A stretch of 49,713 bases of DNA, from the IMG/VR virus record IMGVR_UViG_2529292882_000007. One strand, given 5' to 3'. This DNA is from a virus. Taxonomy: Duplodnaviria; Heunggongvirae; Uroviricota; Caudoviricetes. The stretch's first letter is position 1. Every line of letters begins with the position of its first letter. Below the pieces are notes generated by a model. It searched no databases. It had not been told where the DNA came from and saw only the letters and a program-made list of their open reading frames with translations. Of the stretch, positions 9,048-38,415 are shown in pieces. The position numbers and the translations under genes were made by a program.

Positions 9048-10904
9048 CTATATGGTTACGCCTTTACTTATAACTCTACGGCGTCTTCTACGTATACCTG
9101 ACGAGTTCTGCACATACACATTACCTCGCATTTCCTGTTCGGCAAGCCAGTTAAAATTAGGGTTCAGAATTTCCATCGCGGCAGTTGCATAGTTACGGCA
9201 ATCAAGAGGCTCGTTACGCTCGTAGACTTTCACCCACTTTTCTTTTGTCTGCCCATTTTTATATTCAAATATTTTCTTCTCTGATAATAATCCTTTAAAG
9301 TATTCGGTATCATATCCTCTGTCAGAATCTAATGGGAAATGCATATAACCAGGACCAGGATCATGTAGTTTAATTCTTGCCATGATGGTCCCTTTACCAT
9401 CATCAACCCCCAAATTAAACAACATAGCACCCACACGGTTATTATTACTTGGCTTTCCTATAAATGGTAAACCTACCCCACCACGCCCCCTGATAGAGTA
9501 TATTCGCCTTGATTCTCTCGGCTTAGTAAAGCGATATACCTCTGTCGTAAAATGCCCACCAGAGTCAATACAAACGGAAGAAATCTGTAATTTTCGACCG
9601 TCACGGAATGACCAGCTACGGAGTAAGTATTCATCAAGTTGTTTCCAGACAACATCTTGTGCGGGATCACCTGGGAATATTTTATATTCTATCCCCCATG
9701 ACTCCTTACCTTTTCCCCAACCGACCAATTCACAAACTAAATACGTGTCCTGTACGTCAACACCAGCACTTAACAATAAAACATCATCTGGTAAAAACTC
9801 TTCAAACCTTATTCTGCGTTGCAACAAGTATTCAGGATCGATATCGTCTTTAGCATCCTCTTTCCATGGCTCACCCAGCTTAAGGTTAATAAACTCCATT
9901 AATCCATTTTTATCGCGGTTTCTGGTTGCTTCCGTAAATTCTTCAACCAGCTCTGACAATGCAACCCACGGGGAGTAAAGACTGTTAATATGAAAACCAA
10001 CAATACCTTTAACTCCAGTATGTTCAGCTATCCATACCCCCTTCGCCAACCAATCAACGTCTGGTTTACCAGATCCGCGCATAATCCCGCCGCACTCACA
10101 GCACTCATATCTGGCCGTTTCCGGTAACGCCTCACCTGAATCGCTCTTATCCCATCTGACTTGCGACCATTTCATCACCTGCATGGTGCCACAACATGGG
10201 CAAGGAACATGGTAGTAACGCTGATCGGAGAGCTTAAACCACTTGTGGATTTTGCTCGTTTCCTCCAAAACAGGAGTAGAAACAAAAACTTTCTTACGAT
10301 TATGAAAGTTGGTAGTACGCTGAATACCTAGTTTTAGTGGGTCGCCCTCCTGCGTCACACCGTAACGATCAATCTCATCAGCTAACAGTATTCGAATTGG
10401 CCTGGATGCAAGACCTGCTGGGGAATTAGCACCAACAAGTGCTATATATCCACCAGCGTAATGCTTCATACGTATAGTCGTGCTGGACTTTTTGGCTGCA
10501 CCGCGCCCCTCTTTCCCTTCATGCAGCTTGTGTTTCAAACCAGGGGAATATTTGAACGTCGGATCAATACGCTCTTTTGAAAAAGCCTCAGCCGCCTCTA
10601 CCGTTGGATAAATCATCAACTGAGGAGATGGCTCCTGATCTGCAAAGTAACCCATAACATTTAGCTGTAATTCGGATTTACCAATTTGCGAGCTACATTG
10701 CATCACTACTGTTTCTGTATCAGCGTCACCAATAACATCCATTGGTTCACGCAAATATGGCACTCGGCTTGTACGCCACGGCCCTGGCTCTGGAGACGTT
10801 CCCGGCGCTACATGACGATACTTATCAGCCCATTCGGAAACAGTTAGCCGTGATTTAGGGCGAAGCGCACGGAAAAAAGCGGTGCTCCATACTGTTTCGC
10901 CCAT
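9048..10904 (-). CDS. Terminase large subunit (lambda gpA-like)
   Basis: 618 aa; segments VSEWADKYRH and HVPCPCCG resemble lambda A; follows small terminase. Confidence 0.85.
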   Translation of the reverse strand: MGETVWSTAFFRALRPKSRLTVSEWADKYRHVAPGTSPEPGPWRTSRVPYLREPMDVIGDADTETVVMQCSSQIGKSELQLNVMGYFADQEPSPQLMIYPTVEAAEAFSKERIDPTFKYSPGLKHKLHEGKEGRGAAKKSSTTIRMKHYAGGYIALVGANSPAGLASRPIRILLADEIDRYGVTQEGDPLKLGIQRTTNFHNRKKVFVSTPVLEETSKIHKWFKLSDQRYYHVPCPCCGTMQVMKWSQVRWDKSDSGEALPETARYECCECGGIMRGSGKPDVDWLAKGVWIAEHTGVKGIVGFHINSLYSPWVALSELVEEFTEATRNRDKNGLMEFINLKLGEPWKEDAKDDIDPEYLLQRRIRFEEFLPDDVLLLSAGVDVQDTYLVCELVGWGKGKESWGIEYKIFPGDPAQDVVWKQLDEYLLRSWSFRDGRKLQISSVCIDSGGHFTTEVYRFTKPRESRRIYSIRGRGGVGLPFIGKPSNNNRVGAMLFNLGVDDGKGTIMARIKLHDPGPGYMHFPLDSDRGYDTEYFKGLLSEKKIFEYKNGQTKEKWVKVYERNEPLDCRNYATAAMEILNPNFNWLAEQEMRGNVYVQNSSGIRRRRRRVISKGVTI

Positions 10905-10909
10905 GAGGT

Positions 10910-11470
10910 TTATTCTTCCTGCTTAATAAATCGGGATTCCTGGAGCGCCTGAAGCGCAAAATTAATCTCGTCTTCAATAATGCGTTCGATCTCCCTGGCT
11001 GTTTTGCCTTCACAACGGGGAGCTGCTCTTGGAGCAATACTAAATAAGCGGCTACGCAATTCATTAGCTGCCAGAAATGCATCATCCCTGACCGCATCTT
11101 TAGCGATGAGAGAGCCTTCCTTTTCTTCAAATTCAAGGCGTTTCAGCTTTGCCTGATAAATTTTTTCTGCGGTCTTAGCCTTGTTGAATTGCACCGCAAC
11201 ACCGGAAGTACCACCAGCTAATCCGGCATCATCAGCGGGTAACTCTGGTTGTTCCGAAGATATCCCATGCCCTCTTTTTCCATTTTCAGCAGATACCTCA
11301 CGACCAACCTGTCGGCTCGCTTCATAAGCCGCACTAGCTTTATCAAAATCCAGCTTGCCGCTTTTCAGCACTGGAATGCGACCGGAACGACAGAGCTTCG
11401 TAACCATTGCCGGAGAAATACCTTTTCGGCGGGCAAACTCTGACTTACTGACGATGGCCATTACTTGCAA
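10910..11470 (-). CDS. Terminase small subunit (HTH DNA-binding)
   Basis: 186 aa with N-terminal HTH-like SKSEFARRKGISPAMVTKL; immediately upstream of large terminase. Confidence 0.6.
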   Translation of the reverse strand: MQVMAIVSKSEFARRKGISPAMVTKLCRSGRIPVLKSGKLDFDKASAAYEASRQVGREVSAENGKRGHGISSEQPELPADDAGLAGGTSGVAVQFNKAKTAEKIYQAKLKRLEFEEKEGSLIAKDAVRDDAFLAANELRSRLFSIAPRAAPRCEGKTAREIERIIEDEINFALQALQESRFIKQEE

Positions 11471-12051
11471 CCATTAGCAAGATACTGAACAAATCCCTCA
11501 TGCGTTTCATGCGCGTCGTGGTACTGACGATAAACATCCAGTAACAATGCAATTTCCATATCCGTCGCGGGAATACGTTCTTTATCAATAGCCAGGTACT
11601 TAATTTGAACAACAGGGGAAGAATTATCGTCTTCTTCCTGCGGCTGTTCATCGCTTAACATTTCGTCAAGCTCTGCATCATTAAACCCAAGCAGATCAAT
11701 ATCAAAATCATCATCCATTAACGCTTTGACTTCTTCGGCAAGAAGCTGCATATCCCAGCCAGCATTTAAGGCCAGCTTGTTATCTGCAATCCTGTAAGCC
11801 TTCTTCTGTTTTTCAGAAAGGTTACTCAACCGAATCGCTGGAACTTTATCCATTTCCAGAATTTCGGCTGCTGCAAGCCGCCCATGCCCCGCAATCAGTT
11901 CATTCTTTTCATCGATCAGCACAGGATTAGTGAAACCGAACTCACGGATACTGTTCACCAACTGTTCAACTTGCTCATCTGAATGAGTCCGTGAATTTTT
12001 GGCGTATCTGAGCAGCTTACCGACTGGTAAATATTCGATTTTTAGAGCCAT
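11461..12051 (-). CDS. ParB-like N-terminal domain protein (paralog 1)
   Basis: ParB-box-like AGHGRLAAA motif; 10-nt overlap with small terminase start. Confidence 0.65.
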   Translation of the reverse strand: MALKIEYLPVGKLLRYAKNSRTHSDEQVEQLVNSIREFGFTNPVLIDEKNELIAGHGRLAAAEILEMDKVPAIRLSNLSEKQKKAYRIADNKLALNAGWDMQLLAEEVKALMDDDFDIDLLGFNDAELDEMLSDEQPQEEDDNSSPVVQIKYLAIDKERIPATDMEIALLLDVYRQYHDAHETHEGFVQYLANGCK

Positions 12052-12417
12052 TTTTTAACCGCCATAACACAACAGGTTAAAGAAAACTGTTTAACTTATT
12101 GATACTAAAAGAGAAAAATGACGATCTTTTTACTCATAAAAAATCACACAAACCAGCATAATCATCTGATTTTATTAAGTTTTTATAAGTAAAAAGGATC
12201 TTGAGATGGTGTTTTGGTTAAAAGATTGGATGTATTTGCATGATTTATAACGATTTTTATTAGAACAACATCACATTGGTTAAAGATCTGCGCGTATCTT
12301 GATGATCTAAAAGAAAATTTTCTACTTTCTTTTTACCAGCACAAATACAGCAAAAAATCACGTTTTCCCGATATTTTTCAATGAGATGAGTAAATTTCTT
12401 TTACCGCAACTTTTAAC
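12052..12417. promoter_or_regulatory. AT-rich non-coding region with four GATCT sites, upstream of the packaging operon
   Basis: No convincing ORF; GATC at about 12123, 12197, 12285, 12304. Confidence 0.3.
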
Positions 12418-12608
12418 CTAACTTTTTTCACGTTTAGCTAGCCGAACATCGGGGTTCGAATGACCCGCATCCAACGCTTTTGGCCAGAAGGACCCAATTC
12501 TGCCGGACGATGAAACGATGCTCGTGCTCCCCCACAGACAGCCAGCGAGCGACGCTACAGAACACAGTGAATACACTCTGCATAACAACACCATCAACCA
12601 CACGATGA

Positions 12609-13328
12609 TTAACGAGAGAAGGTCTTAGAAAGAATGTCATCAATAGCCTTTGTGACTTCATCAGCAAACGCATCCTCACCAGCACGCAGCGCCACGCCAT
12701 GCCAATCAAGACGCTGCGAATAGTTAGGTTGCTGGATAAACGTAAGGATCAACGTAGGACGCCGCCCAACGCGCTGCCAGACGCCTGGTTGAAGCGGGTT
12801 ACTTGTACCAGGTCGAACAACAAAAAACTCCGTAGGCTTGCCCTGACGGCGATTTTGATGCGCATCTCGCTGAACTCTTAGGCCAGATAAGACCTGCTGT
12901 AATTGCCCCCGCGAAATATTCCCATATTTGTCCAGCTTTGCGCCGGGACCAGGAGCAAGCTGCCAGCCGTTAGGCAAATATCCACCAGCCCTTAGCGCCC
13001 CTTCTGAACGTTTGTACTGTCGTTGGCCACCTTCGATTTGCGGAGTCAACGTTACAGGGGCTGGCGTTCCGCCCCATTCACGAGCATACACAATGGCTGT
13101 AGGATCACTCTTCTTTGCGGCCAAAACGTAAGTAGAGTTCTGAATCCACGGCGTGGGCCTGTCAAATACCCGATTAATTTCATTCTTAATCGCAGCCTGA
13201 GAAGCCTTTGCCGTTCTGGTTGCCGCAAGCGCCATTGCGAACGGCAATTCGCGTTCTTCAAGGCGCTGGAGTTGTCGTTGAATATCCTGAGAAGAAAAAT
13301 CCATCTTTATCTCAATTCTGTCAGCCAC
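12609..13328 (-). CDS. Hypothetical protein
   Basis: 239-aa ORF downstream of the ParB-methyltransferase fusion gene. Confidence 0.4.
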   Translation of the reverse strand: MADRIEIKMDFSSQDIQRQLQRLEERELPFAMALAATRTAKASQAAIKNEINRVFDRPTPWIQNSTYVLAAKKSDPTAIVYAREWGGTPAPVTLTPQIEGGQRQYKRSEGALRAGGYLPNGWQLAPGPGAKLDKYGNISRGQLQQVLSGLRVQRDAHQNRRQGKPTEFFVVRPGTSNPLQPGVWQRVGRRPTLILTFIQQPNYSQRLDWHGVALRAGEDAFADEVTKAIDDILSKTFSR

Positions 13329-13344
13329 CAGCGCCTCCTACACA

Positions 13345-14724
13345 CTACTTAATCAACGGCCGGAAAGCCGCCAGCACATCATCAGATCGTCCGATTGTTG
13401 AACCACCAGGCAACGGCAACTCAAACTCAAAACGAACAGCTTTCTCCAGACTCTCCCAGCGAAGAGAATCATCGTTAATAACGTGCAAATACCAGCTCTT
13501 ACCGTTAAATACCGACCGCTTTATTCTGAAGCTATGCTCACGGCACAATTGCTTCACTTCCTCATCAGAATGAAACTTCTGATAAAACCAGTGTCCCTTC
13601 CGGTACAAAGCAGAAAAACCATTATGGTCAATAAAATAAAGCCGACTTATAGAGCTAGCAGCTTGCGTTCGTTTAAGCACACTCTCCAGCTCTCCACGGC
13701 TACGGCCAGAAAAGAATATTGACCCACCAGCTTTACACAGGCCTTTCAGAACCGTCAGAACGGACCATTCAGCCTCGACACTATCGACCGAGTTCAAAAC
13801 GCTATCGCAAATCACGTAGTCGTAACGCCCTCGCGTTTTTAAGTCGTCCACCAGCGTATCAATCATCCGGTTTGTTGCGGTCCTATCCAGAGTGTTTCCA
13901 GCGCCCTTACGGCGGAAAAGCTCGAGATCATGCAGGTTATATCCCTTTGCCCTGAGCATTCGCGCGTAGTCTCCCTGCCCCGAACCAAAATCAATTCCTC
14001 TTGGCGTCTTGGCAATGATCGGGAGGATCAACGACTCATACAGGTTTGATTTCAGGCTGCCACCATTACGCAACCGCATAAGCTGCGCATACGTCTGGAT
14101 GTATGTTGTTTTCTCCAGATGAGAATACTCAAATACACCATAAGTTTTATTCAGATAACTTTGGTATTTTTCCTTCTCAACATCAGGGATCACAAACACC
14201 GTTAGCGGTGTGCGCGTCATTTTCGCTGCTAATGCATACTGAGCACAGTGAATAACCTCACCAGACTGAGTAGCAACACAACCACCCCACGGACCATACT
14301 TGATAACCAGTTCCGCTATGTTCTTTCGAACATATGCCATTTTCGCGCGCATATTGCCTGAGATCTGGCTTGCCGATACCTGAACAAAACCATGCTTATC
14401 TTCTAGACCTGACACTCTGCAACGCTCATCTCCGCTGTCAAAATCCGTTCCGTTATGCAGTTGGTTAAACCGTACTTCGTCGTATACCGTCGTTTCACAG
14501 GGCAACACATACACCGCAGCACGCGTTATTCCCAACTTACGTAGCGCCTTCGTCCTTTGGTGTCCCGCCACCAGCAAATCGCCGCGCACTATCAATGGCT
14601 TCACAAGCCCCAGCTCCCTGACGCTTTCCGCCAGCCTCGCAAGATCATCCTCACCGATAAAACGCGGGTTATATTCCGCGCCGCGTAGGTGCGTTATGTC
14701 GTAATTGAGGTGAAGCATCAGCAC
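13345..14724 (-). CDS. ParB-like N-terminal domain fused to class I SAM-dependent methyltransferase-like domain
   Basis: N-terminal AGHQRTKAL ParB-box-like motif; C-terminal Rossmann motif I IDFGSGQGDYA and DYVICDSVLNSV; no DPPY/NPPY seen. Confidence 0.5.
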   Translation of the reverse strand: MLMLHLNYDITHLRGAEYNPRFIGEDDLARLAESVRELGLVKPLIVRGDLLVAGHQRTKALRKLGITRAAVYVLPCETTVYDEVRFNQLHNGTDFDSGDERCRVSGLEDKHGFVQVSASQISGNMRAKMAYVRKNIAELVIKYGPWGGCVATQSGEVIHCAQYALAAKMTRTPLTVFVIPDVEKEKYQSYLNKTYGVFEYSHLEKTTYIQTYAQLMRLRNGGSLKSNLYESLILPIIAKTPRGIDFGSGQGDYARMLRAKGYNLHDLELFRRKGAGNTLDRTATNRMIDTLVDDLKTRGRYDYVICDSVLNSVDSVEAEWSVLTVLKGLCKAGGSIFFSGRSRGELESVLKRTQAASSISRLYFIDHNGFSALYRKGHWFYQKFHSDEEVKQLCREHSFRIKRSVFNGKSWYLHVINDDSLRWESLEKAVRFEFELPLPGGSTIGRSDDVLAAFRPLIK

Positions 14725-15341
14725 ACCTCCCCAGCCAGCAATGCGGATACAAATCCGATATAGCTGCCATTATCATCAACATAACGAGACACCGCGCAGT
14801 CAAAACGATCCGCTTCCTCATCCGTTGCCGGGATTTTATGACCTCCAAATGACAGGTACTGAACTTTTACGCCTGATTTGGCCTCATCCTTCTCAAATGG
14901 GATATCCATACCCTCTGTGTCATCGTAGACTGCCGCACTCAATAAGTTATCCAGTTCGCGCTGAGTAAAACCAATTGAGTCCAGAGCAAAATCATTGGCC
15001 GCAAGATCTGCAAGCTCCGCGCTTAACAACTCTTCATCCCAACCAGCATTCAGCGGAATACGGTTGTCGGCCAGACGATATGCCTTCTTCTGATTCTCCG
15101 TTAGCCCTTCCAGAACAATGCAGGGAACATCATCCATCCCCAACTGAGTGGCCGCAGCAATTCGACCATGACCAGCAATTACAACGTTGTTCTCGTCTAT
15201 CAGGATCGGATTAGTCCATCCGTACTCCTGTATGCTGGCAACAATCTGATCTACCTGCTCCACGGAGTGTGTGCGAGCGTTCTTTTCATAACCAATCAAC
15301 ACAGAAAGTGGTAAAGAAACCACATTAAGATGTTTTGTCAT
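14718..15341 (-). CDS. ParB-like N-terminal domain protein (paralog 2)
   Basis: AGHGRIAAA motif; shares C-terminal KIPATDEE motif with paralog 1. Confidence 0.65.
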   Translation of the reverse strand: MTKHLNVVSLPLSVLIGYEKNARTHSVEQVDQIVASIQEYGWTNPILIDENNVVIAGHGRIAAATQLGMDDVPCIVLEGLTENQKKAYRLADNRIPLNAGWDEELLSAELADLAANDFALDSIGFTQRELDNLLSAAVYDDTEGMDIPFEKDEAKSGVKVQYLSFGGHKIPATDEEADRFDCAVSRYVDDNGSYIGFVSALLAGEVC

Positions 15342-15575: not shown

Positions 15576-16055
15576 TTACGCAGGGATCAAACAGAGGCAG
15601 CCGTTATTTACCTCAATACGGGAATATTCCGGCTTACCATCCACGATTCCGGTAATGACAAGTTCGCCATCAGGCGACCATTCTTCTTTGTCGTCTTCAA
15701 GTACCGCGCCTTCTGGCAAATCAATACAGGCAAAAACAGGGCAGCCAGGATGACGTTTATCCTCCATCGCAATCAGCATCGACTCACCGAACCACTCTGT
15801 AGTAGCACGGCCATCAGCCGCCTGATAGTGAATCAGATACTGGTTTTCGCCATTTGCATACTGAGCACGGGCTTGAACTTCTCCCCATTCGTCACTGATA
15901 CGCATTGTTACCAGTTGGGATAATTCAAACTTAAACGGAACAGACTCTGCACCAATGGCAATCGGTTTATCTTCTTTCTTTTCCATAACATCACCTGAAA
16001 ATAAAAAGCCCCGCGACACCGCGAGGCTGTAAGAGTTACTTTCGATAGAAATCAA
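15576..16055 (-). CDS. Hypothetical protein (likely starts at internal Met, MEKKEDKP)
   Basis: ORF track. Confidence 0.35.
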   Translation of the reverse strand: MISIESNSYSLAVSRGFLFSGDVMEKKEDKPIAIGAESVPFKFELSQLVTMRISDEWGEVQARAQYANGENQYLIHYQAADGRATTEWFGESMLIAMEDKRHPGCPVFACIDLPEGAVLEDDKEEWSPDGELVITGIVDGKPEYSRIEVNNGCLCLIPA

Positions 16056-17390: not shown

Positions 17391-17508
17391 CGGGTTATCT
17401 CCGGTTTAACCAGGGCGGGTATCGCTCGGTTTCGGGTATAACCTTAGGAAATTTTTTCCCACCCGTAAAGCACTTTTTATATAAATCTATAATTATATAA
17501 TTCTATGA
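17387..17508 (-). promoter_or_regulatory. Repeated promoter/5' leader cassette, copy 1
   Basis: About 96 percent identical to 35121..35242; contains TATATAATTATATA-type AT palindrome and identical RBS. Confidence 0.6.
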
Positions 17509-18090
17509 CACTTGCCAGAGAGCATCATGCAACTGGATACCTCCGTTGCACTGGTTGCCCCAGCCATGCCAGCCATCAGGTAAATCACCGCGAGCAAACA
17601 GCTCAATACGAGGAACATCGCCTAACAGCTTTACCAGCTTGTCACGGACCACATCAGGCTTCCGAGAATGCTCCAGACGAGGCGATGTAAACGACTGAAT
17701 GATCCCCGCATCAAGACGTGTCGGTAGTTTGCCTTTCACTGCAAACAAGCAATCTTCACTGTTTGCACGAGTCATATGCCCCATCCCCATCACCAGCTTA
17801 TCTGGTTGTCGGCTACCACATTTGTTCCATGTGAAGCCCTTCATGGTCATCAGCCTGAATCCCCATGCTTTCACCACCAGCAACGCTTCTTCTGGCTGAG
17901 TCGGAACCCACCACATGGCCAACAAACACGATTCAGGATTAGCAAGCTGCCATACAGGAATACGAGCAATATCCTCAGCTTTCATCGTTGGATACTTAAA
18001 ACCAGCGCCACGATTCCCATCCTTACACTTGTCTTTGTATTCCCAGGGGGGATCTGCATAAATCAGATTAAACAATGCAATTGCCTCCAT
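17503..18090 (-). CDS. MT-A70 family N6-adenine DNA methyltransferase
   Basis: Catalytic motif IYADPPWEY. Confidence 0.75.
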   Translation of the reverse strand: MEAIALFNLIYADPPWEYKDKCKDGNRGAGFKYPTMKAEDIARIPVWQLANPESCLLAMWWVPTQPEEALLVVKAWGFRLMTMKGFTWNKCGSRQPDKLVMGMGHMTRANSEDCLFAVKGKLPTRLDAGIIQSFTSPRLEHSRKPDVVRDKLVKLLGDVPRIELFARGDLPDGWHGWGNQCNGGIQLHDALWQVS

Positions 18091-18398: not shown

Positions 18399-18474
18399 TG
18401 GTGGCCCCTACCGGATTTGAACCGATGACCGTGCGATTATGAGTCGCCTGCTCTAACCACTGAGCTAAGGGGCC
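18399..18474 (-). tRNA. tRNA, anticodon CAU (ileX-like, Ile2/Met type), CCA encoded
   Basis: 76-nt sequence GGCCCCTTAGCTCAGTGGTTAGAGCAGGCGACTCATAATCGC...GGTTCAAATCC...ACCA on minus strand. Confidence 0.9.
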
Positions 18475-28886: not shown

Positions 28887-29555
28887 ATGGAGTCTCGACA
28901 AATGACTATCTCTGTAGGTATTTTCAACGGAAAAGGCGGCGTAACCAAATCAACAATTGCCCGTGCTTTAGCAGTTGCTTATGCAAAGGCCGGCTGGAAT
29001 GTATGCCTGATCGATATGGATGTGCTTAACGGAACGGTAACGCGTTGGGTACAACGCAGAATGGCCAACAATATCGAACCAGCAATCGCGGCACAGCCGT
29101 GCGGCACACCATCACAAGTCCAGAAAATCATCGAATCAGAAGTATACGACCTGGTTATCGTAGATGGCGGTGCCTACGCATCTGAATCAGTACCGAAGCT
29201 CTCTGAATTTCTGGATATGGTTATTTTGCCAACCAGATTCTCTACCGATGACCTGGAAACCACCGTTAACACAGCTCACGGCATCGTTAAAAAGGGTGTA
29301 CCAATCAAGAAAATTTGCATGGTGTTTTCCGGCGCGGCTGAAAACGAAGCTGACTATATTGAAGCCCAAGAGTACCTGGCTAATACGCCATACTTTGTTG
29401 TCGATAAGTACATTCCCCACAAGCCAGCTCTGAGCAAAGCTCAGGATAAGGGCTTAAGCCTCATTGAGTGCTCATACGTTGCGCCACGCAAAAAGGCAGA
29501 CGACGTTATTCAGGGGATTATCAACCAGCTTGAGGCTCTGACTACTGCCGCGTAA
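28887..29555 (+). CDS. ParA-family partition ATPase (small type Ib, ParF-like); probable start at 28902
   Basis: Deviant Walker A FNGKGGVTKST. Confidence 0.8.
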   Translation: MESRQMTISVGIFNGKGGVTKSTIARALAVAYAKAGWNVCLIDMDVLNGTVTRWVQRRMANNIEPAIAAQPCGTPSQVQKIIESEVYDLVIVDGGAYASESVPKLSEFLDMVILPTRFSTDDLETTVNTAHGIVKKGVPIKKICMVFSGAAENEADYIEAQEYLANTPYFVVDKYIPHKPALSKAQDKGLSLIECSYVAPRKKADDVIQGIINQLEALTTAA

Positions 29556-37396: not shown

Positions 37397-38245
37397 TTAA
37401 TGTTGGAGTGATTTCCAGGTCTTTCTTAGCCTGTTATAACGCTGCTCAACGAGGGAGCGTAAATATGCAAGGTCAGCACCAGGATACATGCCATCAGCAA
37501 ATTCCTGGCTAACCTCTCTAGTGATTTGATGACGAAGTTCGGCCTCTCCCTTTTCCTGAACAAGACGCGCAGCTCTCTCCGCTGCTTTCTGTTTTGCCTT
37601 TATCTCTCTGGCCGTCTTCCTCTGACGCCATACATTCTCCATCTGCTCCTGAATAACAATACGCTTATAATCAGCCTCCGTTATCGCTTTTTTAAGCCGT
37701 TCGCTATTCTTCGCATTGAAGTAATTAAGTTTCTGGCTAACCGCACGTCTCCATGCTTGTTCAGTAATACCAACTGTTTCCAGCAGTTGATCACGAATCT
37801 CGATTTTCGCTGGCCAATACTGTTTATTCACCCGATCCCAGCGACGTTCATAATCAATAAAACCTAACTCTTTCAGTTGCGACAACGCCCTTGTACAGCG
37901 CGTTATAGACTTGTTCCCAGCTTCGGATACGGTAGACAGGCCGCAAAAATCAGCCAACGCCTCAGCACTGGCCAGAACCCGCTTAGAAATGATGTTTACA
38001 TGGTGCAAAATCGCAGCAATCACAGCATTAATCGCCCGACGACGATGCTCGTTTATCCGGCGTTTCCGCTCTGACGGTTGATTAACGTAGAACGCAACCT
38101 CACACGTAAGATCACGACCATTAATGCGCTGTAAAGCATCAGATAACACCAGCGGCAGCTTGTGCGTATGGTGCTTTGGAGGCTGGAACTCCGGCGACAA
38201 ATTACAAACGTAAGCTGAACGTAGAGACGGCATTGGTCTATCCAT
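37397..38245 (-). CDS. repA: Replication initiator RepA, IncFII RepA1-like (ORF track extends to alternative start 38389)
   Basis: Segment RRRAINAVIA...GNKSITRCTRALSQLKELGFIDYE resembles IncFII RepA1 RRRAIDALLQ...GKLSITRATRALTFLSELGLITYQ. Confidence 0.7.
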   Translation of the reverse strand: MDRPMPSLRSAYVCNLSPEFQPPKHHTHKLPLVLSDALQRINGRDLTCEVAFYVNQPSERKRRINEHRRRAINAVIAAILHHVNIISKRVLASAEALADFCGLSTVSEAGNKSITRCTRALSQLKELGFIDYERRWDRVNKQYWPAKIEIRDQLLETVGITEQAWRRAVSQKLNYFNAKNSERLKKAITEADYKRIVIQEQMENVWRQRKTAREIKAKQKAAERAARLVQEKGEAELRHQITREVSQEFADGMYPGADLAYLRSLVEQRYNRLRKTWKSLQH

Positions 38246-38289
38246 ATGTTCGCTCTTGCGTCCACGGAAAACCAACGTATAATGGGAGT

Positions 38290-38372
38290 TGTCGAGGCGC
38301 CCATGGTTAGTTGTTGGTTTTCCTTTCCGTGGATGTCGCAAGAAGCCCGCAGATTTATCTGCGGGCTTTTTG
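38290..38372 (+). ncRNA. Predicted CopA-like antisense RNA complementary to the repA leader
   Basis: Promoter -35 TTGCGT 38256..38261, 16-nt spacer, -10 TATAAT 38278..38283; terminator hairpin 38343..38371 with T-run. Confidence 0.5.
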
Positions 38373-38415
38373 TTTCCATATCTGGTCACTTTTCAACCAG
38401 ACACCCACAATCATA

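Follow-up and report, generated by a model that had tools for sequence, protein, structure and literature searches.

The window analysed here, which is the whole stretch of 49,713 nucleotides (49.7 kb) of IMG/VR virus record IMGVR_UViG_2529292882_000007, is a myovirus-type phage-plasmid of Enterobacteria that also encodes lambda-like head genes, a contractile tail and a lysis cassette. Nearly all of its genes, including every cassette and packaging gene discussed below, are carried by the minus strand. Between the lysis and the packaging genes lie the two genes that are the subject of this work, i.e. a gene for a small ParB protein (ParB207; 14718..15341) followed by a gene in which a ParB N-terminal domain, a middle region and a class I S-adenosylmethionine (SAM) methyltransferase are joined (13345..14724; the longest open reading frame (ORF) has 459 amino acids (aa)). 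We refer to the two genes as the cassette and to the product of the second gene as the fusion.

In the direction of transcription, the cassette is followed by a gene for a 239-aa protein (12609..13328), a 558-bp non-coding stretch (12052..12608) that contains an inferred cos, a gene for a second small ParB protein (ParB196; 11461..12051), the gene for the small terminase subunit TerS (terS; 10910..11470, with ATG 11461 as its likely true start; phrog_57, E 7.4e-42), and the gene for a large terminase subunit (TerL) of the lambda gpA type (9048..10904; GpA_ATPase, E 7e-76; GpA_nuclease, E 1e-84). The 4.6 kb around this locus recur with 98-99% identity on ~48-kb circular plasmids in 74 of 5,426 complete E. 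coli genomes, and Escherichia phage vB_EcoM-613R2 and Yersinia phages vB_YpM_39, vB_YpM_41 and vB_YpM_44 match them just as closely.

An earlier note on this DNA had described ParB207, the fusion, the 239-aa gene and ParB196 as one module and as a candidate for an undescribed DNA-modification or anti-defence system. All four ORFs are present on the minus strand where the note had placed them. Of its interpretation, the three proteins with a ParB N-terminal domain, the non-canonical methyltransferase and the position of the genes in the phage genome stood up to analysis; the membership of the 239-aa gene and ParB196 in the system and the novelty of the architecture did not.

Domain architecture of the fusion protein

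The two genes of the cassette overlap in a TGATG junction, in which the first base of ATG 14718 is the last base of the ParB207 stop codon. This ATG is very probably the true start of the fusion, giving a protein of 457 aa, because it has both this overlap and a GGGGAGG Shine-Dalgarno sequence, and RefSeq relatives are annotated alike. The fusion matches phrog_5475 from end to end (E 4.6e-261; residues 3-459 on profile positions 1-457 of 458). Its family comprises 703 matches at E<1e-5 in a protein collection clustered at 90%, and 310 representatives at E<=1e-30 among 1.84 billion clusters at 50% identity; nearly all of these are 450-490 aa long and align end to end.

The N-terminal part of the fusion (residues 1-95; 14440..14724) is a ParB/Srx nucleotide-binding domain with the alpha+beta fold of this group, and both nucleotide-binding boxes are conserved: Box I (NxR) is NPR at residues 19-21 and Box II (GxxR) is GHQR at residues 54-57, and N19, P20, R21, G54, H55, Q56 and R57 are invariant in 55 fusion homologues. 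The ParB N-terminal domain with a GHxR motif that had been assigned to three genes of the locus was found as ParB_N (PF02195) in all three; the match is above the gathering score in ParB196 (E 4e-8) and just under the cut-off of 26.3 bits in ParB207 (E 2.2e-5, 24.8 bits) and in the fusion (E 3.1e-5, 24.4 bits).

The middle region (residues 96-225; 14050..14439) is basic and without family assignment, and is the best-conserved part of the fusion family, with the motifs GTDxDxGDE, GPWGG, HCAQYALA, YGVFxY and TYIQTxAQ.

The remainder of the protein (residues 226-459; 13348..14049) is a Rossmann-fold class I SAM methyltransferase with a C-terminal subdomain. It has the Rossmann-like seven-strand fold, the GxGxG of motif I (DFGxGxG, 245-249) and an acidic residue after strand 2, with E268 and D307 as further marks of the domain, and the SAM-binding residues are strictly conserved in the family. 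The sequences IDFGSGQGDYA and DYVICDSVLNSV, on which the methyltransferase had originally been recognised, are present at residues 244 and 302, respectively, and Methyltransf_23 (PF13489) matches residues 233-342 above its cut-off (31.2 bits versus 27; E 2.2e-7).

This domain was said to lack the DPPY/NPPY and PC-ENV signatures of ordinary DNA methyltransferases, and the family bears this out. The patterns [DNS]PP[YFWH] and PC[QK] occur in none of the 55 aligned members, and ENV occurs in five of them, only at scattered and non-aligned positions. The sequence that follows strand 4 in the fusion is CDSVLNSV, not (D/N/S)PP(Y/F/W). Moreover, the fusion has no Pfam match to N6_N4_Mtase (PF01555), MT-A70 (PF05063) or C5 (PF00145), and its C-terminal domain thus matches no family of N6-adenine or N4-cytosine DNA methyltransferases. 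From PADLOC, only the ParB module of MTase_II was matched, on residues 11-75; from NCBIfam, only sub-threshold matches to ParB and Noc were obtained. Similarly, sequence searches of the PDB with the fusion gave only weak ParB and generic methyltransferase matches, and the BFVD library of viral structures held no full-length match (TM-scores <=0.32). Finally, the fusion carries a net charge of +11 (family mean, +7), and this charge lies in the middle and methyltransferase parts.

The small ParB partner and the position of the cassette

Both small ParB proteins match phrog_620 at E ~1e-74 (ParB207, E 3.4e-74), and across 53 small ParB proteins N21, G57 and R60 in the nucleotide pocket as well as E176 and G196 in a conserved C-terminal domain are invariant. 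They are strongly acidic, with net charges of -20 for ParB207 and -18 for ParB196 and a family mean of -15. Over the first ~135 residues, they share 30-60% identity with the N-terminal module of phage proteins that carry annotations as DNA or adenine methyltransferases (393 phage records), and residues 1-150 match phrog_498 (E 1e-50 to 1e-52) and PADLOC MTase_II (E 7e-38 and 1e-40). The small ParB proteins are of the subtype usually found as a part of DNA methylases. The ParB proteins of the window match neither small terminases nor canonical partition ParB proteins: the three score 31.1, 16.4 and 40.1 bits against TIGR00180, the model for canonical ParB, for which the cut-off is 58.45, with only residues ~10-98 aligning, and alignments to PDB entries are confined to the N-terminal domain.

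For the gene context of the family, ORFs were called on 80 viral contigs from IMG/VR that encode a relative of the fusion (single viral contigs, these and others, are designated by L and a number) and searched with the window proteins, and pairing was counted in the 71 loci with at least 600 nt upstream of the fusion gene. A small ParB gene abuts or overlaps the start of the fusion gene in 63 of the 71 loci and lies within 1.5 kb of it in six more, while none was detectable in two. The pair is also found in a Bradyrhizobium prophage, a Serratia prophage, a 51-kb metagenomic phage contig and Bacteroides phage BS-TP3. Moreover, in two of the cluster representatives (P0365 and P0366, 658-659 aa) the small ParB, a second ParB domain, the middle region and the methyltransferase are joined in one chain, and this natural fusion, a "Rosetta stone", suggests that the small ParB and the fusion act together. 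The core unit consists of two genes, ParB207 and the fusion, and not of four.

Directly downstream of the fusion gene, and often overlapping it, 23 of the 80 viral loci (L023-L026, L032-L039, L045-L055, L060, L078 and L086; for example, L032 1821-2252) carry a gene for a protein of ~135-165 aa with the pattern HCA[RK]C...CGV...TCRN[FW]QF. ORFs of similar size occupy the equivalent position in L004 (9419-9883) and L006 (2210-2644), the likeness being one of size only. This family has no Pfam or PHROG match and is not present in the window; it may be an optional third component of the cassette.

The cassette is usually followed by a small ORF and then by a large ORF. A Pfam scan of 35 representative large ORFs identified nine GpA-type, about nine Terminase_6, three TerL_ATPase/nuclease and three Terminase_3 proteins, two proteins with a T7-type terminase RNase H-like domain, and four portal proteins. 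Thus, the cassette heads the packaging operon in phages of Proteobacteria and Bacteroidota, next to at least four terminase families, which makes a partnership with one specific terminase unlikely and fits a general late function. In the window, the location of the cassette between lysis and packaging genes suggests that it is expressed with the late genes. The locus had also been described as a slot in which phages place DNA-modification genes; in support of this, the related lambda-like phages L093 and L094 carry C5 and N6_N4 methyltransferase genes in the region before cos and terS, a few genes upstream of their homologue of the 239-aa gene.

Proposed function, rival explanations and related systems

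We tentatively propose, with rather less than even confidence, that the cassette is a late-expressed, nucleoside triphosphate-gated two-protein module whose target for methylation before packaging is nucleic acid, probably DNA. In this model, the small ParB, which is acidic, would form a complex with the basic fusion, probably via their ParB/Srx domains, and this complex would be gated by nucleotide binding in the conserved NxR and GxxR pockets. Gating would switch on the class I SAM methyltransferase or guide it to its nucleic acid target, most likely phage DNA that has been replicated and is about to be packaged, and the virion genome would then bear a protective or regulatory methyl mark. 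The pairing of the two genes, their natural fusion, the TGATG overlap, the invariant pockets, the opposite charges, the DNA-methylase type of the small ParB, the location upstream of the packaging genes, where related phages carry DNA methylase genes, and two published precedents described below (5mYOX176/ParB176 and GmrS/GmrSD) all speak for this proposal. The cassette may accordingly be considered a candidate for a role in DNA modification or anti-defence.

Several observations weigh against the proposal. The catalytic motifs of all well-known classes of DNA methyltransferases are missing from the sequence, so that DNA is a probable and not an established substrate, and in structure the methyltransferase domain is closest to small-molecule and tRNA methyltransferases. 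No helix-turn-helix (HTH) or other recognised DNA-binding domain was found in any of the three ParB proteins. The phage already has a canonical DNA adenine methyltransferase of the MT-A70 type (17503-18090, minus strand, 2.2 kb upstream; IYADPPWEY motif, E 4e-23). Brochothrix phage BtpYZU02 alone has the fusion with no small ParB beside it, and there the gene is part of the replication module. Finally, the late timing is read from the position of the cassette only, and in a promoter scan shuffled controls had more sites than the real sequence, in which no site lay upstream of ParB207.

A more far-reaching version of the proposal, which we regard as speculative and rather improbable, is that a ParB device made of different subunits and gated by nucleotide brings a non-canonical class I methyltransferase to phage DNA and sets a mark other than N6-methyladenine, N4-methylcytosine or 5-methylcytosine, e.g. 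on a ring nitrogen or the backbone, and that phages of several phyla use this device before packaging to escape host defence.

The likeness of the catalytic domain to small-molecule or tRNA methyltransferases makes a substrate other than DNA a serious rival, even if we consider it somewhat unlikely. The cassette would then methylate RNA (e.g. tRNA or rRNA), a protein, or a nucleotide or other small molecule bound in the ParB/Srx pocket, and would serve host takeover or counter-defence. Against this, the small ParB partner is of a subtype otherwise fused to DNA methylases, and a late function directed at DNA accounts better than early counter-defence for the constant location at the start of the packaging operon. 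The basic charge of the middle region and the methyltransferase domain agrees with nucleic acid as the target, but this property cannot separate DNA from RNA.

Alternatively, the cassette could be a packaging accessory. The ParB proteins would help the terminase to recognise, nick or hold the pac or cos site or the concatemer, similar to the HNH proteins that serve HK97-type terminases, and the methyltransferase would modify the packaging site or a protein. In most loci the cassette indeed lies directly before terS and TerL, often with overlapping stop and start codons, and in the window ParB196 follows the inferred cos and overlaps the start of terS with its stop codon. Moreover, DNA nicking has been reported for a methylase-fused ParB domain, according to the passage of PMC5512222 that cites the work on Bce_0392. 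However, the at least four unrelated terminase families next to the cassette include both cos and pac types, which makes any one specific terminase an improbable partner; the cassette is absent from most phages that have terminases of these types; and the Brochothrix phage carries the fusion far away from its terminase. An accessory function also does not explain why the SAM-binding residues are so strictly conserved, which calls for catalytic methyl transfer. We judge this explanation to be unlikely.

Plasmid partition, in which the ParB paralogs would be centromere-binding proteins that segregate the phage-plasmid, could be suggested by the location of 78 of the 81 E. coli matches on plasmids and by the GenBank label of both small ParB genes, "chromosome (plasmid) partitioning protein ParB", but it is very improbable and effectively excluded by the lack of an HTH, TIGR00180 scores far below the cut-off and confined to the N-terminal domain, the charges of -18 to -20 on the small ParB proteins, the presence of the cassette beside terminases in integrated prophages and viral contigs as well, and the distance of 14-23 kb to the plasmid-maintenance genes, i.e. 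a small ParA-type ATPase (28887-29555, plus strand; ~13.5 kb from ParB207), which is the only ParA-type gene of the window, and an IncFII-type RepA (37397-38389, minus strand).

Several known systems resemble the proposed two-protein methylation module in part. Phage proteins in which a ParB N-terminal domain is joined to an N6_N4 methyltransferase (phrog_498; PADLOC MTase_II, PDLC03229; B. cereus Bce_0392, PMC5512222) have the same ParB subtype, are likewise phage-borne and also couple ParB to a SAM methyltransferase; the fusion described here differs from them by its Methyltransf_23-type fold without (D/N/S)PP(Y/F/W), its middle insert of 130 residues and its near-obligatory separate small ParB. 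Stand-alone phage ParB proteins without a DNA-binding domain activate their cognate DNA thymine dioxygenases, which need them for activity (5mYOX176/ParB176; PNAS 2026, PMC13229309). The gene layout, in which a stand-alone ParB that has a nucleotide-binding domain but lacks a DNA-binding one is the neighbour of an enzyme, is shared with the cassette, where it holds for 63 of the 71 loci, and 5mYOX176/ParB176 is the best functional analogue of the pairing. The 5mYOX176 enzyme is an iron/2-oxoglutarate-dependent dioxygenase without a ParB domain of its own, whereas the enzyme of the cassette is a methyltransferase that has one and that may depend on the small ParB.

The Type IV restriction systems GmrS/GmrSD are likewise doublets (PMC12373910), in which one gene encodes only a ParB N-terminal domain and the other such a domain with an effector. 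In these host defence systems, however, the effector is an HNH or DUF1524 nuclease and the ParB domain belongs to the DUF262 branch, whereas the cassette is a putative late gene unit of phages. Finally, the ParB and Noc proteins of canonical ParABS systems, which are CTP-dependent DNA clamps, share with the window proteins the ParB/Srx fold of the N-terminal domain and counterparts of Box I and Box II; the window proteins lack an HTH, a recognisable C-terminal dimerisation domain and an adjacent ParA, and have GHxR instead of GERR.

The architecture of the fusion had been taken to be undescribed, but the family is already catalogued. Besides phrog_5475, a 2025 survey of the ParB-CTPase fold (bioRxiv 10.1101/2025.10.10.680097) includes fusions of ParB-CTPase with Methyltransf_23, which are of the same architecture and family as the fusion; there, these are described as phage-enriched, concentrated in prophages and "perhaps" anti-defence, with no function assigned. 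The survey reports ATP binding for some bacterial fusions of ParB with SAM methyltransferases, and the fusion family was not found there among the tested proteins. The searched passages also contain nothing on an obligatory small ParB as partner, on the location near terminase genes, on the middle region or on the naturally occurring triple fusion. A literature search on the fusion family, on ParB proteins next to terminases and on these phages found no specific functional study. New in the present analysis are the small ParB as a near-obligatory partner, the natural fusion, the location near terminase genes in different phyla, the conserved middle region without family assignment, the opposite charges of the two proteins, and the finding that the 239-aa gene and ParB196 stand apart from the core unit.

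Phage proteins with a ParB fold that act outside chromosome segregation are an open problem, and the survey lists hundreds of fusions without an assigned function. The ParB-activated thymine dioxygenases reported in 2026 were the first mechanistic case; the locus described here offers a second and different test case. If the target is DNA, the cassette could represent a new base or backbone methylation and a nucleotide-binding ParB pair that gates or directs a methyltransferase; if it is not DNA, it would represent a new use of the ParB fold in late functions of phages. The host is tractable, i.e. the element is a phage-plasmid of E. coli and has plaque-forming relatives that grow on Yersinia pestis EV76, and the analysis provides a two-gene unit to clone, a natural fusion protein and invariant residues to mutate.

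Flanking genes and the inferred cos

ParB196 is 47% identical to ParB207 over the full length (BLASTP, E 2e-60), and its stop codon overlaps the likely start of terS in a TAATG junction. A copy next to the fusion gene is present only in the closest relatives of the window (L011-L018). ParB196 looks like a lineage-specific duplicate of ParB207 that was placed before terS.

The 239-aa gene had been listed as an unassigned gene in one operon with the ParB genes. The ORF is real; the protein, rather than being unassigned, matches phrog_1924, "minor tail protein" (E 2.5e-97). Its family has ~100 relatives and no Pfam domain; Minor_tail_Z (PF06763, lambda gpZ) matches eight of 45 relatives weakly (best E 1.3e-4), the window protein itself has no Pfam match, and a PDB sequence search and a profile search with it retrieved nothing. 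In three distant contigs, a homologue (L093 6001-6729, L094 6001-6747 and L095 6001-6744) lies directly upstream of genes for a Nu1-like TerS and a GpA-type TerL, separated from them by a gap of 145-180 bp, and in Pseudomonas phages F10, JBD68 and MD8 a member of the family is the last gene of the genome. The 239-aa gene is a conserved cos-adjacent gene of lambda-type packaging modules, and its product may be a virion protein. The 239-aa protein was also considered as a third subunit of the ParB system and rejected, since its gene lies next to the fusion gene only in the closest relatives (again L011-L018) and the family is instead always located just upstream of packaging genes of the Nu1/gpA type.

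The region from ParB196 to ParB207 had been viewed as a contiguous module of 3.9 kb. It is interrupted by the 558-bp stretch, which has no convincing ORF and is unannotated in RefSeq and in the phage records, and ParB196 lies beyond the inferred cos in this gap. The sequence records of vB_YpM_44 and vB_YpM_41, both Yersinia phages, are cut on opposite sides of the 12-mer GGTCATTCGAAC (12454..12465, minus strand), as expected if a 12-nt cohesive end had been assigned to different record ends. From these record ends, and not from a mapped terminus, we infer that cos lies at 12454-12465. If this is correct, the virion DNA would split the originally described module such that the chromosome begins with ParB196 and terS and ends with ParB207, the fusion and the 239-aa gene.

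Between the inferred cos cut and ParB196, five GGTTAAAR motifs are present (12053..12418). These 366 bp hold five of the nine matches to this motif in the whole window; the stretch is AT-rich, and the enrichment is partly compositional. The cluster may provide cosB-like binding sites for TerS or another protein. A repeat search of the gap gave only weak AT-rich repeats. About 88 bp of the gap (12238-12325) are missing from vB_YpM_44, in which the flanking sequences are 99% identical to the window.

Upstream of the cassette, a tRNA gene with the anticodon CAT (18399-18474, minus strand) was called tRNA-Met by ARAGORN, and its RefSeq homologue in a related plasmid is annotated as tRNA-Ile. Just upstream of ParB207, a terminator-like hairpin (16028-16007) is located inside the longest ORF at 15576-16055 (minus strand), and the real start of this gene probably lies later than that of the longest ORF. 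This slot looks variable, because related plasmids have a different gene, encoding a DUF2513 protein, at this place.

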